From NCBI GenBank assembly GCA_963749455.1, contig CAVVMX010000021.1, positions 393,354 through 457,353 of the forward strand: a DNA stretch of 64,000 bases, read 5' to 3'. The position numbers and the translations under genes are program-made. The notes beneath the pieces were generated by a model. It made no database searches, was not told where the DNA came from, and saw nothing but the letters and a program-made list of their open reading frames with translations. The DNA comes from an uncultured Chloroflexia bacterium (GTDB lineage Bacteria > Chloroflexota > Anaerolineae > JAAYZQ01). Positions 2,111 through 60,960 of the stretch are shown here, one piece after another; the first letter of the stretch is position 1, and each line of letters begins with the position of its first letter.

Positions 2111-3594
2111 CTACACCGGTCGGACGGTGAGCTTGGGCAGTTCGTTCAGCCCGGCTGCCTTGGCATGCCTGACGGCAATGGCCTTCAGGGCGCGCACCAC
2201 ATCGTCGGGGATCTCTGGCAGCTCATAGGCCGCGATCAGCTCCTGAACCTTGCGGTGGGCACGGGCGTTGGTGTCCAGTGCGCCCTTGTCGAACCAGTTC
2301 TGGCGAAAGTCCCGGTCGATCACCTCCGTCGGGATATAGTCCTCCTGGCGGAAGTGGCGGCGGGTGTGCTTGTTCTTCAAAAAGTTGCCCTCGTGGCCCA
2401 CCTGGCGCATCACCTCCAGCGCCAGCGGCGTCTTCCGAGTCGTCCACGCCGCGCACCAGGCGCTTGGCCATGCCGACGATCTCGGCGTCGATCGCCAGCT
2501 TTTCCAGGCTGAAGCAGCTCTCAAAGTCCATCATGCCGGGACCGGACATCATGTTGACCCCCGCCAGCGCACCGAGGATGGCGCCCGAAGCGGTCTCCAG
2601 TCCGGTCTGGGCATCGACGATCTTGGTGTCGCTCATGCCCAGGTAGGCGTGAGTCGGCAGTCCGCCTGGCTTGATCGCCTTGCCGATCTGGGTGTAGGTG
2701 CAGTCGAGCATCATCGTCGCCATGGCGCCCATGGGAGTTGTGCCGGTGCGCATGTCAAACGACGCCGGCGACCCGCCCCACACGATCGGGCTGCCTGCCT
2801 TGGCCAGTTGGTGGATGGTCAGGCCGCTCAGGCACTCGGCGGCGTGCTGCACCGCCGAGCCGATCACCGTGGCCGGCCCGGTAGCGCCCATGAGCGGCAT
2901 CGACACCAGCTCGGCGGGCACGCCCGTCCGCGCCGCGTCGATCAGGTTGGCGCAGGTGATGTCGCTCCACAGCAGGGGCGGCGACGGGCAGACGTCAAAG
3001 ACGGCCCGCGGCTTGGCTGCCAACGCCGCCGCGCTCCCGGCCGAGGCTACCAGCAGCTCGTGCATAATCGGGAAGCTCTCGATGGCAAAGGTCCCGGTGA
3101 CGATCGGCTTACGGCCGTAGAGCAGAAGCAGGTACAGCCGGTACCAGTCGGCCATGCCTCTGTGGCACGTCGCCGCATACGATCGATGTGGCCAGGGCGT
3201 CGATCTGGGGCAGCATTTCAGCCAATCGGACGAAATTCTCGCAGTCGGCGGTCACCGGTGTTCGGGACTGGTTGGCGCCATAGTCGGCGATCTCGATGGC
3301 CGCCGATCCGGGGTCATAGTGGATGTCGTCGCCCCCATAGTGCACGGCCGGTTCACCCTCCAGGCTGTACAGGAAGAACGAGCCAGGTGCAGTGTCCACT
3401 GCCTTTTCGGCCAGGGAGCGCGGGATCTTGGCTACGCGTGTCGCCATGTCGACCGTGGCGCCCGCGTCGGCCAGCAGCTGCAGCGCCTCATCGTAATGGA
3501 CGCGCACGCCGGGATCCCATAGTAGCTCATACGCTTCGTCGATGACGCGTTGTACCGTCTCGCGCGACAAAAATTCCAGCTTGGGTCGGATCAT
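2111..3594 (-). CDS. MttB-superfamily (trimethylamine methyltransferase-like, non-pyrrolysine) quaternary-amine:corrinoid methyltransferase; 2 frameshifts
   Basis: Three colinear ORFs (3109..3594, 2223..3155, 2111..2524) together give a ~490 aa protein with MttB-family blocks (PVTADCENFVRLAEML..., GMSDTKIVDAQTGLE, MMSGPGMMDFE, C-terminal NELPKLTV). The pieces lie in three different frames, so the breaks are frameshifts and not an in-frame amber/Pyl codon. GAGGAGG RBS upstream of ATG 3594. Confidence 0.7.
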
Positions 3595-3804
3595 CTTTCC
3601 TCCTCAGTTGTTCAGCAGTCAGGTCGCTGCTGTGAGCTATTGAATTATAGGTTCGTAACAGACGAAAAAAGGCGTGGACAACGGACCGCTGTCAGCGGGT
3701 AGAGAGGCGTCAAAGTCCGGCTTCAAGAAGCGGGCTCAAGATCCACATCGGCTTGATCTCCCCTTACGCACGATACTATACCACCGAACTGGCAAACAGG
3801 CAAA

Positions 3805-9756: not shown

Positions 9757-12657
<2,901 letters not shown>

Positions 12658-12733
12658 TCCAAAATCAAGGATCCAGAACCCCACTATGGAACAGTCTGTT
12701 TTCAATAAAACCAAGAGTGAAAGGAGAAGTACG

Positions 12734-13087
12734 ATGGACAAGATCATTGCCTACTGCGGCCTGACCTGCACCGAGTGCGAGGCCTACCTCGCCACGCAGG
12801 CCAATGACCACGCCGCATTGGAGCGGGTGGCCACCAAGTGGCGCGAGGAGTACAACGCGCCGAACGTCACCGTCGAGTCTGTCATCTGCGACGGTTGCCT
12901 GGCAAGCGATGGCCGGCTGTGCGGCCACTGCCTGGAGTGCGAGATCCGGGCCTGCGGCGTGGCGCGCGGGGTCGCCAACTGCGCCTACTGCGACGACTAT
13001 GGCTGCGCCAAGCTGGAGGGCTTTTTCGGCTTTGTCCCCACAGCCCGCGCCACTTTGGATGCTATCCGCCAGGGCCTGGTGCGCTGA
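12734..13087 (+). CDS. DUF3795-family Cys-rich zinc-ribbon protein
   Basis: AAGGAGAAG RBS 5 nt upstream of ATG 12734. MDKIIAYCGLTCTECEAY... with four CxxC pairs. Confidence 0.5.
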   Translation: MDKIIAYCGLTCTECEAYLATQANDHAALERVATKWREEYNAPNVTVESVICDGCLASDGRLCGHCLECEIRACGVARGVANCAYCDDYGCAKLEGFFGFVPTARATLDAIRQGLVR

Positions 13088-13440
13088 CCGCAGGTCGCGC
13101 GCCAGGCCGGATTCCGTTCCCACCAGAAGGCCTGCCTGCTAGCCAGCAGGCAGGCCTTCTGGTCCATCAGCGCCAGCCAGGCATCAGCCCTTGAGCCCAA
13201 CGCCGGCGCTCCTGCCAGCAGAGACAAACTGCGTCAAGGTGAATGTGCGGATCTCGGCCGGTACGCGCTTGCCTGCGTGCATTGGGGCAAGTTCTGGGCC
13301 CTGTAGGCCGCTGTGCTTTGCATTTCGCCTCGCATGGTGGTACAATCGATCCGCTGGTGACGAACCAGGATAACGCACATTTGCCTGTTTGCTCATTTGC
13401 GCGTTTGCACATTCGTCGATTCTCACGGGAGGGAGCAGGA

Positions 13441-13962
13441 ATGAACACAGTCGAGTTGACTCAGTATGCGTTGGGCAATGCCTTCGGCATCCTGGCCCAG
13501 GTTGTCGCTGATCTGACCCAGGAACAGGCCGATTGGATCCCACCAGGCTGCGCCAACCCCATCGGCGCCTCGTACTGGCATGCCGTTTCCGGCGCAGACG
13601 AAGTCATGTGCCGCTGGGTGCTGGGGCAGGAGCCGCTCCATCAGCGGGAGAGCTGGCAGGCAAAGGCGCTGACCGTCTCAGCGCCCGAACCGGAGCACGG
13701 AGGTGACTATCTGGCCTGGATGCAGACCATCCGCGTCGACCTGCCCGCGCTGCACGACTATGCCAAGGCAACCGCAGCGGCGCTAAACGGATGGCTCGGT
13801 TCATTGACGCCCGAGGATCTGGAACGCACTATCAACACCCCCATCGGCGAGTACAACGTGGCGCAGGTGATGGAAACCTTTGTCATCTGGCACCTCAACG
13901 CCCACTGCGGCGAGATCTCGGCCCTGAAGGGCTGCCAGGGTGCTAAAGGGTATCCGTTCTAG
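13441..13962 (+). CDS. DinB_2/DUF664-family metal-dependent protein
   Basis: GGGAGGGAGCAGGA RBS. 173 aa four-helix-bundle-like protein with conserved His residues (WHAVSGADE, IWHLNAHCGEI). Confidence 0.5.
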   Translation: MNTVELTQYALGNAFGILAQVVADLTQEQADWIPPGCANPIGASYWHAVSGADEVMCRWVLGQEPLHQRESWQAKALTVSAPEPEHGGDYLAWMQTIRVDLPALHDYAKATAAALNGWLGSLTPEDLERTINTPIGEYNVAQVMETFVIWHLNAHCGEISALKGCQGAKGYPF

Positions 13963-13980
13963 AGATCTGATAGCAGCGAG

Positions 13981-14010
13981 TTGACCGGCATTCTCTTCCT
14001 GTGGTATACT
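13981..14010 (+). promoter_or_regulatory. putative promoter of tRNA-Arg (TTGACC, 18 bp, TATACT)
   Basis: -35 TTGACC 13981-13986 and -10 TATACT 14005-14010. A 11-bp-stem hairpin (TAGGGAGTTCT/AGAACTCCCTA, 14029-14052) lies between it and the tRNA. Confidence 0.35.
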
Positions 14011-14077
14011 ATTGCCGGTCGTTCTGTGTAGGGAGTTCTCTAGAACTCCCTACGAGACCTGTGTGGCTAAAGCTCTA

Positions 14078-14150
14078 GCGCCTGTAGCTCAACGGACAGA
14101 GCATCGGTCTTCGGAACCGACGGTTACAGGTTCGAGTCCTGTCAGGCGCG
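14078..14150 (+). tRNA. tRNA-Arg (anticodon TCG)
   Basis: 73-nt cloverleaf folded by hand. Acceptor GCGCCTG/CAGGCGC, D arm GCTC..GAGC, anticodon arm TCGGT-CTTCGGA-ACCGA, T arm ACAGG-TTCGAGT-CCTGT, discriminator G. Confidence 0.85.
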
Positions 14151-14167
14151 CCTTTGTCTGTCTCACG

Positions 14168-14200
14168 AAGGGGTTGGCGTCGAGCCAACCCCTTTCTGTT
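14168..14200. terminator. bidirectional rho-independent terminator
   Basis: AAGGGGTTGGC-gtcga-GCCAACCCCTT stem-loop followed by TCTGTTT. Lies between the convergent tRNA-Arg and the exonuclease gene. Confidence 0.5.
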
Positions 14201-15037
14201 TACCCATCCGCCGTCATCTCTATGATCCGGTCCAGGCGGAACGTGCGCTGCTCTCCCTTCAGATAACAGAAGGCGACCATGTACTGGTACCCCCGATCCT
14301 CCCGGACGCGCAGCGGCTGGATGGTGCGGCATGTCTCCTGGCCGGCGGCGTTCACGTACCGCATCCGCACCCGTCCGCCGCTGTCCAGCGCTTCAGCAAT
14401 CGTCGGCGGCAGCGGCACGGCCTGTGCGTGGGGATATGCGATCGGTCCACCCTGGAAGGCAACCAGCTCACCCAGGGTCGCGGCGCCCCAGCGGTTCTCT
14501 ATGTCGTGCAGGATCTGGTCCAGGACCTGGCGGGTCGTATCCACGTCGCCCATTGCCCGGTGGGCCGTGCCGGTATCTATCTCCATCGCTGCGGCAACCG
14601 CCGGCAGGCTGTTGCTGGCAAAATGGTACAACCGGCGAACCAGGGCCAGCGTGTCCACGATCACCCCTTCGGGCGGGGGCAGCCCGGCAATCTCCAGCTC
14701 TGCGGCCAGAAAGCCCAGGTCAAAGGGCGCATTGTGCGCAACGATCGCCGCGCCCGACATCAGGGCCAGCAAGGGAGCAGCGATCTCCTCGAAAGCCGGC
14801 GCGCCGGCCAGCATCTCCCGGCGTGATGTGGTTGACGTGAAAGGCGCCTGCCGAGACGTGCCGTCTGGGATCGACCAGCGATTCGAAGCGAGCGATCTCT
14901 TCGCCGTTCCGAACCCGCACGCAGGCCACCTCGCACACCCGATGGCCGTAAGCCGGGTTCAGGCCGGTCGTCTCCACGTCAAAGACGGCAAAGGCCGTCT
15001 CGCTCAGGGGCTGATCCAGTTCGTCCATCGCGGCCAT
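14200..15037 (-). CDS. DEDDh 3'-5' exonuclease (DnaQ/PolIII-epsilon-like) with C-terminal WYL-like domain; one frameshift near 14770
   Basis: Exo I FAVFDVETTGL, Exo II IVAHNAPFDLGFL, Exo III HRAMGDVDTT. C-terminal ~70 aa ...GRVRMRYVNAAGQETCRTIQPLRVREDRGYQYMVAFCYLKGEQRTFRLDRI carries the RxFRLDRI signature of WYL domains. ORFs 14720..15064 and 14200..14814 are colinear. Confidence 0.55.
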
Positions 15038-15378
15038 TCTATCCCAGCTTGGAGTGGCTGTCAACCACGGTCAGTCAGGGGGCATGCTGAGCGCCTTGAA
15101 TTCGCAACCGGCGTCCTGCCCGGCGGTCCGCCACAAACACTGCCATGTCTGAAACCTGGTACCCATTACACGAATATTCACCCTGCGTCGGTTTGTATCT
15201 ATTCATTACATGTGCTATACTTTGAGACGAGGCGCTGCAGAGCATTCACAGTAACTTGTACACTGTGGTGTATGGGGGCAGTCCTGGGGCGGCAGGGGGG
15301 TGCCGAGCCTACAAGGCGACCGGTCTGCGTTTGACCGTACAGCCATTTGGCGGTAGAATACGGGCCGGGGAGGGAGCG

Positions 15379-47637: not shown

Positions 47638-50054
47638 TCACCGCTCTGTCTTGACCCACCACTGCTGGCCGTCCGTAATCAGCTCGATAGTACCTACCTG
47701 GTCGGTGCGAAGGACGGTGGCTCCCAGTTGGGTCAGACGATCCAGGACGGCCGTCGCCGGATGGCCAAACCGGTTGCCGGCACCGGCTGAGACAACAGCA
47801 TAGGTGGGGTGCACGGCTGCCACAAAGCCGGCGCTCGACGAGCTGTTGCTGCCGTGGTGGGCCAGCTTGAGCACGTCGGCCGACAAGCGGCTGTTCGGAC
47901 CAGATCAACGAGCTCTCTGCCTCGGCCGCAATGTCCCCTGTGAGCAGGACGCTGGCTTGCTCCCAGGTCAGCCGCAGCACAACCGATTGATCGTTGGCAT
48001 CGGCTCGTGTGTCAGCCGCTGGGTCAGGCGTTGTGGCCGGATTGAGCACCGTCAGGACGGCTCCGTCACCCAGGTCGATCTTGACCCCAGCCTGGACGAT
48101 GCTGCGAGTCACCTTTCCCCTGTCCAGTTCCTTGCTGGCATTCTTCATAGATCGCCTGGCCCTCGGCACGGCCGTTGTCGAGCCACCCGCCCACCCGGTA
48201 GCGTCTCAGCACTTCCACCAGGCCGGTGATATGATCGGCGTCGGCATGAGTCATCACCACCAGGTCGATCGACCGATCCCAGAACGGCATCTCGCTGACC
48301 CAACCCTGACGTCAGGGCCGTGGGGCTGGGGCCGCCGTCGACCAGGATCTGCTGGCCGCGCGGGGTGGTGATGAGGGTGGCATCACCCTCGCCGACGTCC
48401 AGAAAGGCGATGTGCAGCCGGCCATCGGGCAGTTGCAGGACGGCCAGCCAGATGAGCGACCACTGTCACCGGAAGCAGCCCCAGCATGACCGCTGCCGAG
48501 CCGGCGGGGCAGGCGGGCCGCCAGCCAGTTCCAGAGACGGCGGTCGTACCCCTGGCTGTAGGCCCAAACTGCGGCCAGCAGCAGGCAGTAATACAGGGCC
48601 AGCCGGCTGGCCCTGTCCGGACTGATCTGAACGGAGGCCATCGGCCAGGTGGCCAGCCAACGCACAACGGCCGTGGTATAGGCCAGGCCAAGCCATGGGA
48701 TCCAGAAGATGAGCTGGGCAATCGGTTGAAGGAAAGGGAGGAGCCCGACGAGTGTTGCCACCCCGCCGGCGATGATGATGGCCGGCTGGGCCGGCAGGAT
48801 CAGCAGGTTGGCCAGAGGCGCCACCAGCGACAACTGTCCAAAGTGATAGACGATCAGCGGGCAGGGTCAGGATCTGTGCGGCCAGCGTGACGATCAGTAG
48901 GTCGTCCAGGTAGCGAACTGCCTTCTTGGCCCTTTCCTGAGGCAGGACGCGCGCCAATCCGCGCTCAAAAAGCCGGTCCAGCGCTGGGGAGAACAGGATC
49001 AGGCCCAGGGTGGCGGCAAAGCTGAGCTGAAAGCCGACGTCCCACAGTGAGAAGGGATTGATCGCAGTCAACAGCAGGCCCGAGGCGCACAACGACACAT
49101 AGGCCGTGGCGTGGCGGCCCAGGTACAGGGCCGTCAGGTATAGGCCGGCCATCAGTGCGGCGCGAGCCACGGCCGGCTCAGCGCCGACCAGCAGCACGTA
49201 CAACCCGACGCCGCCCAGGGTGAACCAATAGGCCCGGCGCTTGCCCAACAGCCGTCCACAAGTCCGGGAAAGCAGCGCGGCGATGATGGTCAGGTTGGCG
49301 CCGCTGATGACCAGGATATGGCTGGTGCCGGTTGCGTTGAACAGGTCGTAAAGGTCGCGGGGGATGCTGGCCCGGATGCCCAGGATGATGCCCTGCAGCA
49401 GCGACGCCTCGGGCTCGGGCACCAGGCGGGCGATGGCGGCTCGAGCCCGGTCCTTGACGGCACAGAAGGCTGCCTTGATCGGGCTGCCCTGGTCCTCTGC
49501 CAGGAGCTCGATGCGTGGCCGGCCGATGTAGGAGTAGATCCCCTGACGGGCCAAGTACGCCTCGTAGGAAAAGCCCTCCATCTCGGGCGGGGTCTCCAGC
49601 AGGCCAGACACTCGCAGCCGGTCGCCATAGGCATACTCTGGCAGACGAGGGGCGCGCACCAGTACAGTCCCATGGACCGGGTAGACCTGGCCGCCGACCT
49701 CGACCGATTCGGCGCTCGAGCCGCAGGTTGGTCCAGGTGTCGCGCACGTCGGGATAGCCAGACACGACGCCCTCGACGGTCAGCCATCCGCTGTCGTTAT
49801 AGTGCGCCGACAAAGGTCTGGTCGGCCCAGTTGGGCAGGGCCGCTTGATAGCGCAGGGCGCCGGCGAGCAGGGCCAGGGCGCAGACGCCGCTCAACCGCA
49901 TGGAGCGATCTCGCCGCCACAGGACCGCGGCGGCCAATGGTATGATGGACAGGATCAGCAGTGCGGCGGGTTCGACGCCGCTGGGCGCCAGCACATAGTG
50001 GGCCAAGGACAGGCCAGCCGCCCATGCAGCTGCAACCAAGACCAGGGGAGGCAT
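47638..50054 (-). CDS. comEC: ComEC/Rec2-family DNA internalisation competence protein with C-terminal metallo-beta-lactamase domain; many frameshifts
   Basis: N-terminal TMs, competence domain (TGTSHILVISGANLTIIAALL), MBL motif VVMTHADADHITGL, C-terminal LKLAHHGSNSSSS... in colinear pieces across ORFs 49797..50141, 48466..49659, 48312..48833, 48066..48290 and 47638..47886. Confidence 0.65.
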
Positions 50055-50145: not shown

Positions 50146-50843
50146 CTACAGCCTGGGCATATAGTAGCCTACGCCCCGCTCAGAGCAGATGTAGCGCGGC
50201 TTCTGGGGGTCGGGTTCGATCTTGCGGCGCAGGTAGGTGGCGTATACCTTGACATTCTTGTCACCCCCTCTGATAGGCCACGTCCCAGACGTTGGCCAGG
50301 ATGCTTTCGTAGGTGAGCACCCGCCCGGCATTCTGTGCCAGGTAGAGCAGGAAACGGTACTCGGTGGGCGTGAGCCGGACCTCTTCGCCGTCGGCTACCA
50401 CCCGACGGCAGACTGGGTCGATGATCAGCTGGCCGTGGTCGAAGCTGAGCACTTGATCTGCCTGTTCGACCGGCTGAGCACACCTGCGCAGCAGGGCCTC
50501 GATGCGGGCTACCAGTTCCTCCCGGTCAAACGGTTTGGGTACATAGTCGTCAGCTCCGCCGTGCAAACCTTGCACGATCGTGCGCCACCTCTCCAAGTGC
50601 AGTCAGCATGATGACCGGCACGGTGGACATCTCGCGGATCCGTTTTAGCGTTTCCCAGCCATCCATGCCGGGCATCATGACATCGAGCAGTATCAGGTCC
50701 GGCCGTTCGTGGTACAGCAGTCGTATCGCCTGTAACCCCCCACTGGCGCTCAGGACCTCGTAGCCCCGCCGCTCTAGCATGGCTCGCAGGAGTTGCTGTA
50801 GGTCCTCTTCGTCGTCCACCACCAATAGCTTTGGTGCCATCAT
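50146..50843 (-). CDS. OmpR/PhoB-family response regulator; about 2 frameshifts
   Basis: Receiver [11 protein letters not shown]...[14 protein letters not shown] (canonical Asp pocket). Winged-helix output ([37 protein letters not shown]). No histidine kinase adjacent. Confidence 0.7.
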
Positions 50844-50999: not shown

Positions 51000-51389
51000 T
51001 CATGAACGGAGCTGCTCGTCAGCGGCATTCCACTCGGCGCGGCGCAGTCGGGCCAGGATCCGTGCGCATAGCTCGTTCAGAGAGGATGGCCACCGGATAT
51101 AGTCGTCGGCCCCCTGCCGCAGCCCTCGCACAGCGTCAGCCCGGTTGCGACTGGAGGAACACAGGATCAGAGGAACGCCCGATCTGGCCCGAATGTCGCG
51201 CAACAAGCTCCAATCCATCGGGTCTTCGACCTGGAGCAATATCAGGTCTGGTTGGAACGTGCCTAGAAGGGCCAGGCTGGACCTGGTTGCCGGAGCAACG
51301 TGCACGCCATAGTCCTGACCCGGAAGAAACGCTGCTACCTTGCGCGCCAGGTTGCCACGTCTTTCCAAGACCAGGATCCGGGTCGGCAC
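51000..51389 (-). CDS. stand-alone atypical receiver-domain protein (pseudo-receiver)
   Basis: CheY-like fold, but acidic pocket DD replaced (ILVLERRGNL) and the phospho-acceptor Asp position reads DLILLQVEDP (Gln). Confidence 0.5.
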   Translation of the reverse strand: MPTRILVLERRGNLARKVAAFLPGQDYGVHVAPATRSSLALLGTFQPDLILLQVEDPMDWSLLRDIRARSGVPLILCSSSRNRADAVRGLRQGADDYIRWPSSLNELCARILARLRRAEWNAADEQLRS

Positions 51390-51690: not shown

Positions 51691-51719
51691 TTGACAGAAT
51701 CCTGTATCTGTGCTATTAT
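51691..51719 (+). promoter_or_regulatory. consensus sigma70 promoter (TTGACA, 17 bp, TATTAT) of the RiPP-like operon
   Basis: 33 bp upstream of ATG 51752. Confidence 0.5.
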
Positions 51720-51751
51720 CGGTTAAATACAAGGCGTAGAGAGTATCCCAA

Positions 51752-52047
51752 ATGGAAGTCCTTTCCCGGCGCTACCGCAAGAGCCCCGATCTGGTCTTTC
51801 GACAGATAGCTGGTGAGTTTGTGCTGGTGCCGATCCGGCACGACGTGGCCGACCTGGAGGCGGTATACACCCTGGCGGGGTAGGCGCGCGCATCTGGGAG
51901 CTGCTGGATGGCGAGCGGGATGGCCATGCCGTCCTGGACCAGATCGTGCAAGAGTACGACGTCACCCCTGACGAGGCCCGGACCGATCTGGTCGAGTTTC
52001 TCGGCGAGCTGGAAGCGGTGCAGGGGATAGTGCCGGTAGAGGCCTGA
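51752..52047 (+). CDS. PqqD-family RiPP recognition element (peptide chaperone); one frameshift near 51880
   Basis: MEVLSRRYRKSPDLVFRQIAGEFVLVPIRHDVADLEAVYTLAG then VGARIWELLDGERDGHAVLDQIVQEYDVTPDEARTDLVEFLGELEAVQGIVPVEA* has the PqqD/RRE layout (beta strands, then LNxxgxxIWellDG helix). Stop TGA overlaps ATG of the rSAM gene. Confidence 0.6.
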
Positions 52048-52048
52048 C

Positions 52049-53168
52049 ATGGGTGACGGGCAGAGTACAAGAAGCAGGTCGGTGCGAGATTGGATCGACC
52101 GTATCGATCAGCGCACGGGAGATCATCGCGTGCCCTGGCTCATCTCCCTGGAGCTGACCGAGCGCTGCAACCTGCGCTGTGTGCACTGCTACGTCAACCG
52201 GCCGGCCGGCGACGACGAGGTCCGCCGGAAAGAGATGACCCTGGCCGAGTGGCAGGGGATCCTGGATCAGGTAGCCGATGCCGGCACGCTGTGGCTGCTG
52301 GTGACCGGCGGCGAGCCGCTCCTCCGGCCCGATTTTCCCGACTTCTACCGGTATGCCAAGGGCAAGGGGCTGCACGTTATCCTGTTTACCAACGGTACCC
52401 TGCTGACGCCGGAGCTGGCCGACCTGCTGGCCGAGTACCCACCGTGGGAGATCGAGATCACCCTGTACGGGGCCACCGCCGAGATCTACGAGCGGGTCAC
52501 CGGCGTGCCCGGTTCCTATGACCGGTGCCGGCGGGGGATTGACCTGCTGCTGGAGCGCGGCCTGGCCCTGAACCTGAAGACGATGGCCCTGACGCTGAAC
52601 GTGCACGAGCTGCCGGCCATGCAGCGCATGGCCGACGACCTGGGGGTGCGCTTTCGCTGGGATCCGGCAGTCCACTCGCGGCTGGACGGCGACCACCGGC
52701 CGCTGGCCTGCCGCCTGTCGCCGGAGGAGATCGTCGCCCTGGAGCGGCAGGACCCCAAGCGGATGCAGCAGTGGCAGGAGTACTGCGGGCGGCCTGGCTG
52801 TCGCCGATGAGGACCGGCTCTTTATGTGTGGGGCAGGGTTGGGCACTTTTCACCTGGATCCGTATGGCGGCCTCTATCCTTGCCTTACGGCCCGCTGGCT
52901 GCGTTATGACCTCCTGCGGGGTTCGGTTAGGAAGGCGCTGGGGGAGTTTCTTCCGGCCGTGCGTGCCCTGCCGGTTGCGCCCGACAGCACGTGCCGGAAG
53001 TGCGACCTGCGGATCATCTGCCAGAACTGCCCGGCCTGGGCATATCGCGAGATAGGCGACCCTGAGGCTCCTGAACCGTTCCGTTGCGAGTTGGGCCGTC
53101 TGCGACAGACTAATCTGGGCCTGACCGTGACGTCTGCCACGGGAAAGGCACAAGCGCAGTCATGCTAA
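52049..53168 (+). CDS. radical SAM / SPASM-domain peptide-modifying enzyme; one frameshift near 52810
   Basis: CNLRCVHC (Cx3Cx2C) radical SAM cluster motif, GGEPLL. C-terminal SPASM Cys clusters (CGAGLGTFHLDPYGGLYPC, CRKCDLRIICQNCPAW). Confidence 0.75.
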
Positions 53169-53198
53169 TATCAGATCGATTAAGGAGGGATTCACGTG

Positions 53199-53309
53199 AT
53201 GACAGAAAGCAAGAAAGCGTACCAGAAACCGACCTTGGAGCGGGTGGTGCTGATCCCGCAGGAGAATGTGCTGGGAGACTGCTACCACCTCCGGCCGCAG
53301 GCGACATGA
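53199..53309 (+). CDS. candidate RiPP precursor peptide (36 aa): MTESKKAYQKPTLERVVLIPQENVLGDCYHLRPQAT
   Basis: Strong AAGGAGGG RBS 6-9 nt upstream of GTG 53196/ATG 53199. Starts 31 nt after the rSAM stop. Charged leader plus C-terminal GDCYHLR core with a single Cys. Stop TGA overlaps ATG of the kinase-like gene. Confidence 0.45.
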   Translation: MTESKKAYQKPTLERVVLIPQENVLGDCYHLRPQAT

Positions 53310-54268
53310 AGCCAGTGCGGGCCACCCATCCCGTGTCCGACAGAGCATATCGAGCTGGCCGACGGCCCACGGCTGGCCGAAGCCGTAATCGGGTAGACCT
53401 TGTGTCGTTTTCTCTGGCTCGCATCGCCGGGCTGGACCTGTGCCTTCGGTGGGAGGCGGGATGTCCCTGGAAGGGATTTCCTCCTCAGTATGATCCCTTT
53501 CGCGTTTCGGATGGCGAAGGCGCCAATGTCGAGCTCACCATTCGCGTCCTGCCGGCGCCCTCCGGCGGGAATGAGGGGCCCGGGGGGGCGGGGACCGTGC
53601 CTTCAGGCCGGCCGACTTCTGGGCCGTGTTTCCTCGCAACGGAGGCTGGCGCTTTGTCAACGGGCCCATGGCAGCTGGCAAGTGGCAGCGGGCGTTGGCC
53701 TGGTCCCCGGGATCGGGGCAGGCGCATCTGTGGCTGGAGTCCAGCGTTCCCTCTCCTGATCCGCTGGGAGACTTGACCTTGCCGTTCTTCACGGCCCTGT
53801 TCGCCCATCACCACGGCCTCCTGCTCCACGCTGCGGCTGTGGAGGTAGACGGGCGGGCGTGGGTCTTTGCCGGGCCGTCGGGCACGGGCAAGAGCCATTG
53901 GTCCCGGCAGTGGCAGGACCGTGGCATGACCGTGCTCGACGAGGACCGTGATCGTGCTGCGTCAGTTGGATGGGCAAGTGTGGGCCTTTGGCACGCCGTG
54001 GCACGCCGAGCCCCGCCTCTGCTCGCCGCGCGGAGCGCCGGTGGAGCGGATCTTTTTCCTGCGGCAGGCCGAGACGGACACGGTGCAGGAGGTCCGGCAG
54101 GCGGCGGGGACCGCGCTGCTCATCCGCTCCTCGCAGTTGCCTCTCTGGGATCCAGAAGGGATGCAGACGGTCCTCGACGTCGCCGGGCAGGCGGCGACCC
54201 AGGCGCGGCTCTTTGGCCTTGGCCGCATGACTGACGATGGTCTGCTCGATCGCGTGATGGCGCTGTAG
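53306..54268 (+). CDS. HprK-related kinase-like P-loop protein (serine-kinase fold), about 2-3 frameshifts
   Basis: P-loop AGPSGTGKSHWS followed by GTPWHAE. Overall HPr kinase C-terminal-domain-like layout, distributed over ORFs 53162..53776, 53626..54234 and 53948..54268. Confidence 0.45.
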
Positions 54269-54285
54269 CTCGAGGGCTATTCAGC

Positions 54286-54329
54286 CCAACAACGAAGAGG
54301 CGGCCACGCGGCCGCCTCTTCGTTGTTGG
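54286..54329 (+). terminator. 20-bp perfect stem-loop at the end of the RiPP-like operon
   Basis: CCAACAACGAAGAGGCGGCC-acgc-GGCCGCCTCTTCGTTGTTGG. No clean U-tract (followed by TCATTCT). Confidence 0.4.
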
Positions 54330-54384: not shown

Positions 54385-54413
54385 TTGACTCGGGCGCCGA
54401 CTTGCGTTATACT
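54385..54413 (+). promoter_or_regulatory. sigma70-like promoter of the GH1 gene (TTGACT, 17 bp, TATACT)
   Basis: 72 bp upstream of TTG 54486. Confidence 0.45.
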
Positions 54414-54485: not shown

Positions 54486-55849
54486 TTGGACGATTTCGAG
54501 GGAGACTTGCTGACCTTCCCGGCAGGGTTCGCCTGGGGTGTTGCTACTGCTGCCTACCAGATCGAGGGGGCGTGGAACGAAGGCGGCCGCGGCCTGTCGA
54601 TTTGGGACACCTTCTGCCGCCGGCCGGGCAAGGTGCACAACGGCGACACCGGCGATGTGGCCGATGATCACTATCACCGCTGGGCTGAGGACGTGGCCAT
54701 CATGGCCGAGCTGGGCGTGAACGCCTATCGCTTTTCGATCTCCTGGCCGCGCGTCCTGCCCGATGGCAAGAGTGTCATCAACCTGGCGGGCCTCGATTTC
54801 TACGACCGGTTGGTGGAGGCGCTGCTGGCCAGAGGCATTACCCCCTTTGTCACGCTCTACCACTGGGACCTGCCCCAGGCGCTTCAGGATCAGGTGGGGG
54901 CTGGGCCAGCCGCGACACGGCCCGCTATTTTGCCGACTATGCCCACCTTGTCGGCAGGCGCCTCGGTGACCGGGTGAAGCACTGGATCACCCACAACGAG
55001 CCGTTCGTCGTCGTGTTCCTTGGGCATCAGACGGGACGCACGCACCGGGCGTGCAGGACCAGGCCGTCGCCTCCGCCGTTCGCCATCACCTGCTGCTGTC
55101 GCACGGCTACGCTGTGGGCGCGCTGCGCGACGCAGTCCAGGATGCACAGGTCGGCATCACGCTGGACCTCTACCCTGTCCATCCTGCCTCGGATTCCGAG
55201 GCAGGATCAGGAAGCCGCCAGGCGATTTGACGGCATGCACAACCGCATCTATCTCGACCCGGTCCTGCGCGGCAGCTATCCTGACGACATGGTCGCTCTC
55301 TTGGGCCCGCACTTTCCCCAGATTCAGCCGGGGGACATGGAGGTGATCTCGACCCCGATCGATTTCCTGGGAGTGAACTACTACAGCCGCTCGGTCGTCA
55401 AGCACGATCCCGATTCGTCCTTTATCCAGATGGCGTGGGTGCGCCCGCAAGGCAGCGACTATTCGGAGATGTGGGAGATCTACCCGCCCGGGATCTATGA
55501 GATGCTGACCCGCCTCCAGGCAGACTACCAGCTCAAGAAGATCTATATCACAGAGAACGGCATTCCTGTGCCTGACGTGCTGACCGCAGACGGGCAGGTG
55601 CACGACCAACAGCGGATCAGGTACATCCGCGATCACCTGGCCCAGCTCCATCGGGCCATCGCCGATGGCGTTCCGCTGCGCGGCTACTTTGCCTGGTCCA
55701 TGCTGGACAATTTCGAGTGGGCGCACGGCTACAAGATGCGTTTTGGATTGGTGTACGTGGATTATGCCACGCAAGTGCGGACGATCAAGGACAGCGGCCG
55801 GTGGTATGCGCGCGTCGCTCGGGAGAATGCCATACGGGCCCGGCGGTAG
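54486..55849 (+). CDS. glycoside hydrolase family 1 beta-glucosidase; about 3 frameshifts
   Basis: TTG start after AGGAGA RBS. GH1 blocks ([20 protein letters not shown], acid/base region TLNEP-like ITHNEPFVV, nucleophile ITENG). Confidence 0.75.
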
Positions 55850-56018
55850 AAGGCGGCTGAAACCCATGCGGCGAAGGCATGTTGCACAACTGTCCGTCTC
55901 GTGGTAAGCTACAGGCGTCAATGTCTACCCGCTCTCGCCGGACCGTGCTGAGCGAGCGCATGAACATGTCCTTGACACAGCAGCGTTGCAGTTGGCAGCC
56001 TGGATGGAGGTGAAAGGT

Positions 56019-56947
56019 ATGCTGGCAAGATCCGGTCTATTCCCATTTGATTACATTCGCCCGACTACACCCGACGAGGTGGTGCGCCTGTTGCAGAATG
56101 ATGGGGACGGCGCACGGCTGTTGATGGGCGGCACCGACCTGTTGGTGCGCATGCGCGATGGGGTCATCGCCCCCCGGGTCGTGGTGGACGTCAAGCATCT
56201 GCCCGGCATGGGTGAGGTAACCTACGACGACGGGACCGGCCTGACGGTGGGTGCGGCGGTGACGATGAACCGGCTCGCCGGCCATCCGGCGGTCCAGGCC
56301 CACTATCCGCTGCTGGCCGAGTCGGCGAATTCGGTCGCGTCCTACCAGGTGCGCAACCGGGCGACGCTGGGCGGCAACCTGTGCAACGCTTCTCCGGCGG
56401 CCGACACCGCGCCGGCTGTGCTGCTGTTTGAGGCGTTCATCGTCCTGTATGGCCCGCATGGCGAGCGCCAGGTGCCGGCAGCGGCCTTTTTCCTGGGCCC
56501 CGGCCGGACGGCGATGCAGGCCGGCGAGTTCATGACCGCCATCCGCTTTCCCCCACCGCCGAGCGGCGCGGCTGGCCGCTATCTGAAACTGGGACGGAAC
56601 CGGGCCGGCGACCTGGCGATTGTCGGCGTCGCTGTACTGGGCTTTCCCGACCATGCCGTCCCGTCAGGCTATCGCTTTCGCATTGGATTGGCGTCGGTAG
56701 CGCCGGTGCCGCTGCGGGTCGAGGAGGCTGAGGCGCTGCTGGCGACAGCCCACCGGGCGAGGAAACCTTTGCTGCCGCTGCCGCCACGGCTGCCGCTGCG
56801 GCCAGCCCTATCGACGACGTTCGGGCCAGCGCTGCCTACCGCCGGGCGATGGTCCGCAACCTTACCCTGCGCGCCCTGCGCGATGTGTGGGCCCGCCTGG
56901 CTGAGCAGCTGACCGCTTTAAGCGAACAAAGGAGAAGCAATGTCTGA
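56019..56947 (+). CDS. molybdenum hydroxylase (XDH/CODH family) FAD-binding medium subunit, CoxM-like; one frameshift
   Basis: FAD-binding LLMGGTDLL, ATLGGNLCNASPAAD. Confidence 0.7.
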
Positions 56948-57423
56948 GCACTCGATCACAATTAGTTGTGAATGGCGAACAGGAGCGCCTGACCGTGCCG
57001 GCGAACATGACGCTGCTGGAGCTGCTGCGCGAGAGGCTGGCGCTGACCGGCACCAAGAACGGCTGCTCGGCCGGGGAGTGCGGGGCCTGCACGGTGCTTG
57101 ATGAACGGCGAGCCGGTCAACGCCTGCATGGTGCTGGCCGTGGAGGCCGATGGGGCCGAGGTCGTCACCGTCGAAGGGCTGGTCGCACGATGGGCAACTG
57201 GATGCCGTCCAGCAGGCGTTCATGGACGAGGGGGCCGTCCAGTGCGGGTTCTGCACGCCGGGCATGTTGATCTCGGCGCGGGCGCTGCTGACCGCGTACC
57301 CCGCACCCGACCGAGGAGCAGATCCGCGAGGCGCTGGTGGGCAACCTGTGTCGCTGCACCGGCTATACCCGCATCGTGCAGGCGATTCAGAAGGCGTCGC
57401 GCAGCAGCGGACGTGACCGGTGA
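56940..57423 (+). CDS. molybdenum hydroxylase [2Fe-2S] small subunit, CoxS-like; about 2 frameshifts
   Basis: Plant-type ferredoxin motif [11 protein letters not shown] and second cluster motif QCGFCTPGM...NLCRCTGY. Confidence 0.7.
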
Positions 57424-57439
57424 GAGGCAGGAGTGGAAG

Positions 57440-59794
57440 ATGAGCGACGAGAAGCAGACCTTCAATCCTGTCGGCCAGAGTGTCCCGCGCGTGGATGCGC
57501 TGGACAAGGTGACCGGCGCGGCGCAGTTCACCGACGACCTGCAGTTCGGACCGGGGCTGCTGTACGGCCGGGTCGTGCGCAGCCCTCATCCCCACGCGCT
57601 GATCAAGCGGGTGGATGCCAGCCAGGCGCTGGCCGTGCCCGGCGTCAAGGCGGTCGTCACCGGGGCCGACACGCCCGGCTTCATCGGCCTGTACCTGAAG
57701 GACCGGCACATCTTTTGCACCGACCGGGTGCGCTACGTGGGCGATCCGGTGGCCGGGGTGGTCGCGACCAGCGAGGAGATCGCCGAGGAGGCGGCCCGGC
57801 TGGTCGAGGTCGAGTACGAGGAGCTGCCGGCCGTGTTCGACCCGCTGGAGGCGATCAAGCCCGAGGCGCCCCTCCTGCATCCTGACCTGGGGTCCTACGA
57901 AGTCGTGCCCTTTATCTTTCCCAAGGCGGGCACCAACGTCTCCAACATCTTCCGGGTGCGCAAGGGCGACGTGGACGCGGCCTGGGCGCAGTGCGACGCC
58001 ATCGTCGAAGGAACCTACCGCGTGCCGCACATCCAGCACGTGCCGATCGAGCCGCACGTGGCCGTCGCCCGCTGGGAACGCTCTGGCGAGGTGACGCTGT
58101 GGAGCAGCACCCAGTCGCCCTTTGCCCAGCGCGACCTGATCGCCCAGACGCTGGGCATCTCCCAGGGCGACATGCGCGTCATCGGCTCCTACATCGGCGG
58201 CGGCTTTGGCTCCAAGGCGGGCGTGTCGATGGAGGCGCTGGCCGTGGCCATGGCGCAGAAGGTGCCGGGCCGGCCGGTCAAGCTGCGCATGACGCGCGAG
58301 GAAGAGTTCTTCTGCACCTTTGTCCGGCAGGGACTGGTCGCCAAGGTCAAGATCGGCGGCACGCAGCGAGGGCAAGATCCTGGCCCTCCAGGTCGAATAC
58401 TATTGGGACGCCGGGGCCTATACCGAGTATGGCGTGAACATCACCCGCGCGGCGGGCTATTCTTCCACCGGCCCGTACAACGTGCCCAACGTCAAGACCG
58501 ACTCCTACTGCCTCTACACCAACCATCCGGTCGGCGGGCCGATGCGCGGCTTTGGCATGCCCGAGATCCACTGGAGCATCGAGCAGTCGGTGGACCGCCT
58601 GGCCGAAAAGCTGGGCCTGGATCCGGTGCGAGTTCCGCCTCAAGAACTGCGTCAAGGGCGGCGACACGATCGTCACCGGCATGATCATGCACCCGATCGG
58701 CCTGTCAGAGTGCATCGAGCAAGGTGGCGCAAGGCGATCGAGTGGGGCAGCAGGAGAACGCCCGTCGGCCCCGCACAAACGGCGGGGCAAGGGCATCGCC
58801 ATCTGCTGGAAGGCGCCGGCCATGCCGCCCAACGCCGGCTCCGAGGCCTGGGTGCGCTTCAACGAGGACGCGACGGTCAGCGTGGCCGTCAGCGGCCAGG
58901 AGCTGGGCCAGGGCACCTTTACCGTGGCGGCGCAGATGGCGGCCGAGACGCTGGGTGTGCCGTACGAGTGGGTGCGCATCTCCCGTCCGGTGGACACCCG
59001 CTACAGCCCCTACGAGTGGCAGACGGTCGCCAGCCGCCTCACCTGGTCGATGGGCAACGCCGTGCGAGGCCGCCGCCGGCGACGCCCGGCAGCAGATCGT
59101 GGAGATGGTGGCGCGCTACTGGGACGAGGACGCCGGCCGACCTCGACATCCGCAACGGCGAGGTCTTTTCCTATCGCAGCGAGCGGTCCTTCTCCCTGAA
59201 AAAGCATGGTGATCTACGGCCTGCCGCTGCCCGACGACAAGGGTTGGACCGGCGGCCCGATCATCGGCCGCGGCAAGTTCATGCCGACCTACGTCACCGG
59301 CCTGGATCCAGAGACCGGCCAGGGCGAGCGGGCGGTGGTCCACTATACCACCGGGGCGCAGGCGGTCGAGCTGGAGGTGGACACCGAGACGGGGCAGATC
59401 GAGATCGTGCGCCTGGCGGCGGCTTACGACGTGGGCAAGGCGATCAACCCCGACCAGGTGCGCGCCCAGATGGAGGGCGGCGTGGTGCAGGGCGCCAGCT
59501 CGGCCCTGTTCGAGGAGCTGAAGCTGCGCAACGGCAAGCCGGCTGAACCCCTCATTCGTGGACTATCGCATCGCGACGGCCGTGGACGCGCCGCGCAAGA
59601 TCATCGCCGAGTATGTCGAGGTGCCGCAGGATGATGGCCCGTGGGGGGCGCGTGGGATCGGCGAGCACCCGATGATCGCCACCGCGCCGGCCATCGCCAA
59701 CGCGCTCTACGACGCGCTGGGCATCCGCTTCAATGACCTGCCGCTGACGGCCGAGAGGGTGTTCCTCGCCTGGCAGGAGCAACAACCACAGTAG
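57440..59794 (+). CDS. molybdenum hydroxylase molybdopterin-binding large subunit, CoxL/XdhA-like; at least 4 frameshifts
   Basis: AGGAG RBS. MSDEKQTFNPVGQSVPRVDALDKVTG... Mo-cofactor blocks (GGGFGSK, GMPEIHWSIEQ, C-terminal GARGIGEHPMIATAPAIANAL). No AYRCSFR (form I CODH) motif seen. Confidence 0.75.
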
Positions 59795-59875: not shown

Positions 59876-60960
59876 ATGCCCGAGTTCATCCCCGCTCGCG
59901 AGCTGGCTCGCTTGTACTACGTCGAAGCGGTCAGGCCCATCCTTGAGGCCGACTATCCCGATTTGGCGCACTCGGCCGGGCTGATCGGTCCTGGCTCGGA
60001 GGTGCTTGGCTTTGACACCGAGATGTCCACCGATCACGGTTGGGGGCCGGGGGTTGGGATCTATCTGACCGAGGCCGATCACGCCCGGCTGGCCGGCGAG
60101 CTGCGCACAACGCTGGGCTACAAGCTGCCTCTGCTCTTTCGCGGCTGGCCGACGCACTTTGAGGAGGTGCCGGATGATCCCGGGACGGAGGTGCCCACGT
60201 TAACCGAGACCCGCCCCCTCAACCACCATGTGCGGGTCACCACGCTGCACCGATTCGTCCGAGAATACGCCGGCGTCGATCTGGATCGGGAGCTGACGGT
60301 GCTGGACTGGCTGGCCATTCCCGAGCAGAACCTGAGGACGCTGGCCGGCGGGGCCGTGTATCACGACGGGCTGAACGTCCTTGAGCCGATGCGCCGCAGT
60401 CTGGCCTACTATCCGCACGACGTGTGGCTATACCTGTTGTCGGCGCAGTGGCAGCGGATTGGGCAGGAGGAGCCGTTTGTCGGCCGGGCCGGCACAGTCG
60501 GCGACGACCTCGGCTCAGCGAGTCATTGCCGCGCGGCTGGTGCGCGACCTGATGCGCCTGTGCCTGTTGATGGAAAGGCAGTACGCGCCCTATCCCAAGT
60601 GGTTTGGCTCGGCATTTGCCCGGCTCGAATGCGCCGCTACCCTGATCCCCATTCTCCAGAACGTGCTGCGGGCGACCGATTGGCACGAGCGAGAGAAGCA
60701 TCTGTCTGTTGCCTACGAGACCGTCGCCATCATCCACAACGATCTGGGCATCACCGCGCCGGTGCTCGCCCAAGTCTCGCGCTTCTGGAGCCGGCCGTTC
60801 TGGGTGATCCAGGGGGAGAGGATCGCCCGCGTGATCTGGGAGGCGATCCAGGACCCGGAGGTCAAGCGGCTGCCCTTTGGGGTCGGCAAGGTCGACCAGT
60901 ATGTCGATAGCACCGACATCCTGTCTTACGCCGGGCGGTGCCGGCGACTGGGTGGGCTCT
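59876..60960 (+). CDS. hypothetical protein (possibly DUF4037-like); one frameshift near 60500, C-terminus uncertain
   Basis: MPEFIPARELARLYYVEAVRPILEADYPDLAHSAGLIGPGSEVLGFDTEMSTDHGWGP... continuing in ORF 60381..61151. Confidence 0.3.

Follow-up and report, generated by a model that had tools for sequence, protein, structure and literature searches.

Four genes in an indel-rich assembly

Positions 51691-54329 of the window (the whole stretch of 64,000 nucleotides from an uncultured Chloroflexia bacterium that was analysed here) hold a real operon of four genes, which encode a PqqD-type recognition element (RRE) for peptides made on ribosomes and modified after translation (RiPPs), a radical SAM enzyme with a SPASM domain (rSAM), a small peptide and an HprK-fold protein, called ScmC-like below (table 1). 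Our results suggest that the locus is quite probably one operon of a widespread, experimentally uncharacterised family of RiPP cassettes, which works by the RRE/rSAM/kinase mechanism proposed below. A first-pass annotation had described four tightly coupled genes here; the operon stands, but none of the four is an intact open reading frame (ORF) in the window, and the frameshifts throughout had been missed. Its proposal of an uncharacterised, RRE-dependent rSAM-SPASM peptide operon agrees with our analysis, in which no characterised product was found.

The promoter is conserved in five related loci (designated by L numbers, and including L211, L210, L209 and L001), where TTGACA is invariant and TGnTATnnT is kept despite diverged flanks. 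The PqqD and rSAM genes meet in a stop/start junction, TGAcATG, with the PqqD gene ending 1 nt before the rSAM start, and L211 is arranged alike. A second overlap reported between the peptide and ScmC-like genes, acATGA, is an artefact, because the homologous stop codon is TAA at 53386-53388 and the ScmC-like gene starts with GTG at 53402 (MSFSLARIAGLDL...), as in L211 and L001, not with ATG at 53306. The strong ribosome-binding site in front of the peptide gene is present as described, and L211 has it too, one G shorter (AAGGAGG). Behind the last gene, the inverted repeat (54286-54305 and 54310-54329) is a perfect 20 nt and folds with -49.9 kcal/mol (z = -8.8). It had been presented as a terminator; the consensus terminator scan did not call it because it has no T-tail, and a terminator role, plausible from the repeat and its position, is how we read it. 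A second promoter-like site, just past the hairpin and upstream of a GH1 beta-glucosidase gene, fits a hairpin that marks the end of the operon.

Table 1. Coordinates of the operon and of other features in the window
Feature	Position	Strand	Basis or remark
Promoter: -35 TTGACA, 17-nt spacer with extended TG, -10 TATTAT	51691-51719	+	sigma-70-like, 11/12 consensus matches
PqqD-family RRE, 98 aa after repair	51752-52047	+	Pfam PF05402
Radical SAM/SPASM peptide maturase (predicted), ~372 aa after repair	52049-53168	+	CNLRCVHC and C-terminal Cys
Ribosome-binding site AAGGAGGG of precursor gene	53182-53189	+	read from sequence
Precursor peptide gene	53196-53388	+	DNA alignment with L211, peptide family alignment
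ScmC-like HprK/PEPCK-fold P-loop protein, ~288 aa after repair	53402-54268	+	Pfam PF27840 in relatives
Perfect 20-bp stem, 4-nt loop, 18 nt past stop codon	54286-54329	+	probable terminator without U-tract
Promoter-like site TTGACT-17-TATACT	54385-54413	+	10/12 matches
GH1 beta-glucosidase	54486-55849	+	split by frameshifts
Xanthine/CO-dehydrogenase-type subunits	55986-58700	+	split by frameshifts
Response regulator, 129 aa, receiver-only	51000-51389	-	
OmpR-type response regulator, ~230 aa with Trans_reg_C	50149-50843	-	split by frameshifts
ComEC-like gene	48168-50054	-	split by frameshifts
ARAGORN tRNA call, 4-nt anticodon 'ttga'	59985-60073	+	absent from Rfam results
Rfam PYLIS_3 match (pyrrolysine insertion sequence, mttB type)	2537-2636	-	39 bits against gathering score 38

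In the PqqD gene, 1 nt is missing from a G-run at about 51876, which splits the gene into two frames; the rSAM gene loses its frame through deletions of 1 nt each at about 52793 and 52805; and the ScmC-like gene carries 2 extra nt in a G-run at about 53581 and 1 extra nt at about 53948. The flanking genes are broken as well. According to tblastn with the proteins of the syntenic relative L001, the ComEC-like gene has at least three frame changes, the response regulator two and the FAD subunit of the xanthine dehydrogenase (XDH) type one, and flanking genes have a frameshift about every 400-600 nt, so that an indel-rich, probably long-read, assembly is the apparent source of the whole window. 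The short-read contig L211 is 94.3% identical to the window in nucleotides over 4.6 kb, with 27-28 gap openings (the count varies with the aligner), and its genes for PqqD (98 aa), rSAM (373 aa), a 58-aa peptide and the ScmC-like protein are all intact. Because the flanking genes are equally frameshifted and this close relative is intact, the breaks in the window operon are assembly indels and not operon-specific decay; pseudogenization limited to the operon is ruled out by the equal density of frameshifts in the flanking genes. The truncated 253-aa rSAM ORF of the window has been deposited in NCBI/ENA, on a contig of 522,864 bp (P0013); clustered with it at 90% identity is a full-length protein of 373 aa (P0174), which L211 encodes. 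Owing to the assembly errors the window copy is a poor template, and intact orthologues exist in L211, L001 and L002. The tRNA call listed in table 1 is likeliest to be false or to stem from an indel error within a long-arm tRNA.

The precursor peptide and its partner proteins

The 36-codon ORF that had been taken for the complete precursor (53199-53309) is the 5' part of the precursor gene, truncated by compensating indels; the peptides encoded at this position in syntenic relatives have 55-64 aa. Aligned with the DNA of L211, the window is 1 nt short behind TGC, the codon of the first Cys (about 53283), and has 1 nt too many at ATGAAG (about 53308). The TGA at 53307 occurs in the shifted frame only, because of this -1/+1 pair, which rules out selenocysteine or read-through at that codon. 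Between the two indels the true frame reads xPPPAAGDMSQ in the window and MTTSASGDIGQ in L211. Farther downstream, C-GPPIP-C supplies the second and third Cys of the window, and one further shift leads to the homologous end ...GWPKP-TAA (...RGWKP-TAA in L211), with at least three indels inside the gene. As reconstructed from these alignments, the window precursor would be about 62 aa long, MTESKKAYQKPTLERVVLIPQENVLGDC-xPPPAAGDMSQ-C-GPPIP-C-PTEHIELADGHGWPKP, the exact core residues being uncertain; the L211 precursor has 58 aa (VVAESKRTYQKPTLERVVLIPKENVLGDCMTTSASGDIGQCDPPVEICEVGKVRGWKP). Genome mining can take a caution from this case, as an indel-rich assembly can fake a short 'precursor' complete with strong ribosome-binding site and stop/start overlap.

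The conservation of the small ORF, on which the first-pass annotation had staked its proposal, is borne out, the ORF being syntenic across phyla. GDCYHLR, whose invariance it had put up for checking, is not a conserved core: conservation lies in the leader, and between the Cys residues the core is hypervariable. This is seen in an alignment of 32 peptides from syntenic loci, 26 of them outside the clade of the window. The leader is basic and continues as [Y/W]-x-K-P-x-[L/I/V]-x-x-[V/F]-x-L-x-P-E-E-A-V-L-x-x. In the main family, which those 26 peptides represent, the core has the form C-K-x10-14-C-x3-8-C-x4-6, with C-K-x10-14-C-x3-8-C present in all but one of them; 25 of the 26 end in Ser, 16 of these in Gly-Ser. 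In the clade of the window (window, L211, L209, L210, L001, L002), ENVL replaces EEAVL and the first Cys is kept, the cores are hypervariable with two or three Cys, and the peptides end in Pro or Cys (KP, LP, AP, RC). The precursor peptides match no NCBIfam or Pfam model even at E <= 1.

The assignment of the first gene to the PqqD family is sound (PF05402, 56.1 bits against a cutoff of 23.4). Its top NCBIfam match is lasso_PqqD_Bac, the PqqD model of Bacillota lasso peptides, which it reaches with 35 bits against a cutoff of 80.

The rSAM enzyme likewise has the features that had been read from it. C40, C44 and C47 of CNLRCVHC are invariant in 20 family members, and in the same alignment seven C-terminal Cys (C260, C278, C315, C318, C324, C327 and C346) are invariant and C246 is nearly so. 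The Pfam Radical_SAM model scores 81.9 bits, and the Pfam SPASM model gives no report for the protein at E <= 0.01; JGI names homologues 'radical SAM protein with 4Fe4S-binding SPASM domain', and the protein aligns over its full length to MftC, PapB, CteB and the anaerobic sulfatase-maturating enzyme (anSME). By sequence, the closest solved structures are SkfB (a thioether synthase; E = 2e-21), PqqE and CteB, and anSME is a distant PDB match (E = 8e-7) that lies outside the top 25 NCBIfam matches. Against the curated NCBIfam models the enzyme stays below every cutoff: AhbD gives 122 bits against 500 and covers the N-terminal part only, MftC 106.7 against 265, PqqE 76 against 381, PapB 63 against 340, StsB 84 against 625 and AlbA 63 against 850. 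The enzyme thus does not fall into a non-RiPP family, which would have spoken against the first-pass proposal.

The ScmC-like protein has the motifs LHAAAV...GPSGTGKS...DEDR...FGTPWH in the window, and LHAAAV, GPSGxGKS, (D/E)DR and FGTPW(H/Y)GE are conserved in its family; an alignment with HprK/P of L. casei matches up the His, the P-loop and the DD(R)-like motif. Its top NCBIfam match is ScmC of the SynChlorMet (SCM) system (46.4 bits against a cutoff of 125), followed by the HprK-related kinases B (29.8) and A (25.7 bits, against 200; TIGR04352, TIGR04355), and the Pfam family PF27840 'ScmC' is precomputed on all of its orthologues. The membership in HPr-rel-A or GeoRSP-type families that the first-pass annotation brought up is therefore not borne out, since the curated cutoffs are missed. 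The AlphaFold model of an orthologue (P0121) has a pLDDT of 91, and the N-terminal beta-rich domain of about 120 aa gave no informative match. Two natural fusions were seen: P0251 (395 aa) joins the ScmC-like protein to Peptidase_S24, which is signal-peptidase-like, and P0179 (652 aa) joins a SAM-methyltransferase to it. It had been stated that a serine-kinase fold belongs to no characterised RiPP pathway, which published work contradicts. Lasso precursors of the paeninodin type receive a phosphate on their C-terminal Ser from HPr-kinase homologues (PMC8498205); in the case of pseudomycoidin, PsmN, an NTP-transferase, subsequently attaches hexoses to that phosphate (PMC6993621); and linear polyphosphorylated peptides (LPPs; Popov et al., Nat Commun 2026; PMC13381572) are defined by an HprK-like kinase.

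Spread of the cassette and its neighbourhoods

The rSAM search scored 8,000 candidates and yielded at least 3,629 proteins with E <= 1e-10, many of which share about 50% identity and represent several phyla; the profile of the ScmC-like protein yielded 3,258 clusters (50% identity) at E <= 1e-30. The order PqqD, rSAM, small ORF, ScmC-like is the same in L001-L016 and L209-L211 and is kept across at least six phyla. The hosts are Chloroflexota-type metagenome-assembled genomes (MAGs), Anaerolineales, Nitrospirota, Aminicenantes, Thermoanaerobaculales, Thermodesulfobacteriota, Verrucomicrobiota and a 'delta proteobacterium' MAG, the phyla including Acidobacteriota; rearranged cassettes occur in Clostridia and in an actinobacterial MAG. 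The search of genome contigs by rSAM alignment relied on motifs common to rSAM proteins in general, and of the 80 loci it listed only about 10-15 truly belong to the family. A metagenome scan with a hand-made DNA pattern for FGTPW[HY]G, unbiased as to rSAM, gave a strong ScmC match at 46 of 120 loci; where at least 1.7 kb lay upstream, this rSAM family was present at 11 of 12 loci, and where at least 600 nt lay downstream, 19 of 29 carried an S24/SpI-like peptidase. As the family is both large and uncharacterised, it is a worthwhile target.

Relatives of the window have further genes at the cassette. The S24-like proteins pass the NCBIfam cutoff for archaeal-type (SipW-type) signal peptidase I (55.6 and 52.8 against 51.85), a gene for NTP_transf_5 (PF14907) is found in several related loci, and a large protein, p757, is a conserved neighbour. 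In the 64 kb of the window, tblastn found no homologue of the S24-like peptidase, the NTP transferase or p757, exporters lying outside the systematic search. Because these homologues were not found, the window is regarded as a minimal, four-gene version of the cassette.

Genes for polysaccharide synthesis and export surround the cassette in the Aminicenantes (L005) and Nitrospirota (L006) relatives, and HD_5/HD (HD-GYP-like) proteins are neighbours in both (L005, regions 2724-3728 and 11416-11790; L006, regions 10506-11423, 1-2945 and 11502-15086), with a PilZ protein in L005; this setting echoes the capsular-locus context of LPPs. In a Thermodesulfobacteriota relative (L013, 1832-8974), two rSAM-SPASM enzymes, ScmC, NTP_transf_5, PqqD, an S24 peptidase and two tandem precursors lie together; the precursors have WTKPKL... 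leaders and end in AS and IS, and the locus is still below the cutoffs for the SCM cassette. A Clostridia MAG (L020, 9806-11724) has ScmC and S24 followed by look-alikes of a GHMP kinase (galactokinase-like) and a sugar-1-phosphate nucleotidylyltransferase, judged by N-terminal sequences only, which hints at glycosylation chemistry linked to the cassette. Large, mutually paralogous proteins of unknown function (631-771 aa) flank the cassette in the Chloroflexi-type relatives L001 (3233-5128 and 8274-10547) and L002 (9106-11517); one of them carries an SdrD_B domain, and they are absent from the window.

In the window itself, the stretch from 50.1 to 55.9 kb consists, apart from the four genes of the operon, of two response regulators and the GH1 glycosidase. 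The response-regulator pair lies divergently upstream of the operon. This arrangement is shared by L001, L209, L210 and L211 and not by L002-L004, which are more distant; either simple shared ancestry or a regulation of the operon could lie behind it. The PYLIS_3 match listed in table 1 may merely reflect an MttB-family gene.

Proposed mechanism and relation to known systems

Beyond the observed gene content, synteny, conserved motifs and folds, we infer Cys crosslinking and peptide phosphorylation, which can be pictured as follows. The PqqD protein would bind the YxKP motif of the leader, in the way that the recognition elements of lasso peptides and LPPs bind [Y/W]xxP, and would present the peptide to its partner enzymes. 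The rSAM-SPASM enzyme would abstract a hydrogen atom from the core and crosslink it; the likeliest crosslinks would be Cys-to-carbon thioethers of the sactipeptide or ranthipeptide kind, which are favoured because of the three conserved Cys and the SkfB and CteB relatives. The ScmC-like protein, through its HprK-type active site (His, GxSGxGKS, D/E-D-R), might phosphorylate Ser/Thr as LppK and the paeninodin kinases do, and in most of the family the obvious target would be the near-invariant C-terminal Ser. In relatives only, a SipW-type signal peptidase may remove the leader and the NTP_transf_5 enzyme may decorate the phosphate. That the leader might be cleaved after EEA (EN in the clade of the window), 16 residues from the Tyr, is a guess made by register with the LPP motif.

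Several observations weigh against this picture. The enzyme fits no curated rSAM subfamily, and what speaks for thioethers consists solely of the conserved Cys and distant relatives. One member of the window's clade, L210, has two Cys only; the clade lacks the C-terminal Ser, and the reconstructed window core holds only one Ser and one Thr, in a sequence that cannot be read with certainty owing to the indels. The hairpin is without a U-tract, the leader peptidase and the NTP transferase are missing from the window by tblastn over the 64 kb, a transporter was not seen there either (exporters being outside the systematic search), and no family member has demonstrated chemistry.

The reading of the ScmC-like protein as a peptide kinase has one competitor that deserves attention first, although we consider it unlikely: the protein may instead be a phosphorylase/ATPase, a scaffold for rSAM and RRE, or a kinase for a sugar or lipid carrier of adjacent polysaccharide pathways. 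Its resemblance to HprK/P does not extend beyond fold and P-loop region (phmmer E = 0.94), PEPCK matches the structure just as well, and the family-specific FGTPWH has no HprK counterpart; furthermore, cassettes often lie within polysaccharide loci. The C-terminal Ser can be cited on both sides, as it is not conserved in the clade of the window and near-invariant in most of the family. What tips the balance towards a peptide kinase is that the ScmC-like gene lies directly 3' of the precursor gene across phyla, that a fusion to a leader peptidase exists (P0251), and that the characterised HprK-like enzymes of RRE-containing clusters are peptide kinases.

With regard to the product, a small molecule or cofactor derived from the peptide, as with mycofactocin or PQQ, instead of a crosslinked peptide is decidedly improbable; on that view the conserved C-terminal residues would be modified by the rSAM enzyme and set free by the peptidase, and the product would be decorated by kinase and NTP transferase. 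MftC is the second-best NCBIfam match, aligned nearly over its full length, and PqqE the second-best PDB relative, but both scores are far under their cutoffs (107 against 265 and 76 against 381). Similarly, the main family strongly conserves its C-x-x-x-G-S end, but the C-terminus is unconserved in the clade of the window. Moreover, scaffolded peptides typically have variable loops between fixed Cys, and no genes for a dehydrogenase or other redox partner are conserved in the neighbourhoods.

There is very little to be said for a true pseudogene cluster, in which the frameshifts and the in-frame TGA would be real and no product would be made: frame-breaking lesions do affect all four genes and the truncated rSAM ORF is the deposited form, but the GH1 beta-glucosidase, ComEC-like, response-regulator and XDH FAD subunit genes are broken at the same density, some of the indels lie within homopolymer runs (51876 and 53581, for example), and the protein sequences are otherwise well conserved, with a close relative intact. 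That the rSAM protein is a non-RiPP enzyme of the heme/siroheme decarboxylase or sulfatase maturase type, with an incidental small ORF, is suggested by its top NCBIfam matches (AhbD, AhbC and NirJ) and has next to no probability, as these cover only the N-terminal rSAM core (residues 31-200) with at most 122 bits against cutoffs of 500-650, and as synteny across phyla includes both the small ORF and PqqD, beside a conserved leader motif.

We therefore return to a RiPP cassette with crosslinking and phosphorylation as the preferred reading. A more far-reaching proposal can be made only tentatively, and we would not wager on it: the family may be a new RiPP class with a three-Cys core crosslinked by rSAM-SPASM, phosphorylation by ScmC (on the C-terminal Ser in most) and processing by SipW-type and NTP_transf_5 enzymes. 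It would then stand beside the LPPs as their cyclised equivalent in several phyla, perhaps with a link to exopolysaccharide or biofilm loci. The defined set of four genes, with intact orthologues in L211, L001 and L002, lets one ask how the rSAM enzyme acts on a three-Cys core and what role an HprK fold plays in an rSAM pathway.

Set beside known systems, the operon has the general characteristics of RRE-dependent rSAM-SPASM RiPP pathways, namely CxxxCxxC, SPASM Cys, an adjacent PqqD and an adjacent precursor with conserved leader and variable core. Membership in named families was considered and rejected, all scores lying below the cutoffs of the SCM, HprK-rel-A/B, GeoRSP, MftC, PqqE, PapB and sactipeptide maturase models. 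In the case of GeoRSP, geo_PqqD_fam gives 20.9 against 100 and GeoRSP_rSAM 62.5 against 400. The precursor adds to the distance from mycofactocin and PQQ by fitting no NCBIfam or Pfam model, and anSME, a distant PDB match only, does not accommodate the rSAM enzyme either. SynChlorMet (TIGR04248-TIGR04251; PF27840) resembles the operon in its HprK-like ScmC, its PqqD-related ScmD and its rSAM/SPASM enzymes; however, the cutoffs are missed for ScmD (26 against 100), ScmF (82.3) and ScmE (81.7, both against 400) as for ScmC, and the operon has a single rSAM gene rather than the ScmE/ScmF pair. Literature searches on SynChlorMet/ScmC, or on rSAM with kinase and thioether, found nothing relevant, so that the SCM cassette counts as uncharacterised too. 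The maturases of sactipeptides and ranthipeptides (SkfB, CteB, AlbA, PapB) share the rSAM-SPASM architecture, RRE dependence and Cys-containing cores, whereas the RRE is a separate protein in the window operon and an N-terminal fusion in those enzymes, and the StsB, AlbA and PapB cutoffs are missed.

Phosphorylated lasso peptides have an HprK-like protein in common with the operon. The PqqD protein scores best against the Bacillota lasso model, the main family ends in Ser, and the NTP_transf-type enzyme that adds hexose to the phosphate in lasso systems has a parallel in the NTP_transf_5 of relatives. On the other hand, no macrolactam synthetase (C, Asn-synthetase-like) or B2 protease (transglutaminase-like) is found in or next to the operon (50.1-55.9 kb), the class-defining enzyme of the window is the rSAM-SPASM protein, and the clade of the window does not end in Ser.

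The LPPs are closer in several respects. Their leaders carry YxxPxVLxHQxIxFETxxS, their kinase polyphosphorylates core Ser3 and their clusters lie in capsular polysaccharide loci; SpI-like peptidases cleave the leaders with the help of the recognition element, and the LPP peptidase prefers the phosphorylated precursor (PMC13381572). The window family likewise has a discrete PqqD-type RRE and an HprK-like kinase beside the precursor, the homology of the window kinase comprising the fold and the P-loop motif only. It shares the RRE-binding leader motif [Y/W]xxPx[L/V/I], though of the longer LPP motif only the YxKPx[L/I/V] part; relatives of the window moreover lie in polysaccharide loci and have an uncharacterised NTP transferase and a signal peptidase I of archaeal type (SipW-like). 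The differences are as clear. LPP clusters are without radical SAM enzymes, which the paper does not mention, and their products are linear, whereas the window family adds rSAM-SPASM and a three-Cys core; the phosphosite is core Ser3 in LPPs, whereas the conserved Ser, where present, is C-terminal in the window family; the SpI-like peptidase and NTP transferase, which LPP clusters combine with an MsbA-like exporter, are not among the genes of the window, where exporters were outside the systematic search; and LPPs are described by their authors as restricted to Bacillota (PMC13381572), whereas the window family is found in Chloroflexota, Nitrospirota, Acidobacteriota and others. RiPP pathways with HprK-like kinases were earlier known only from lasso peptides and, since 2026, from the linear phosphopeptides of Bacillota. 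The family described here couples that toolkit to a radical SAM enzyme, mostly in uncultivated phyla, and the best reading of the locus is that of an rSAM-bearing cousin of the LPP and lasso-kinase systems.

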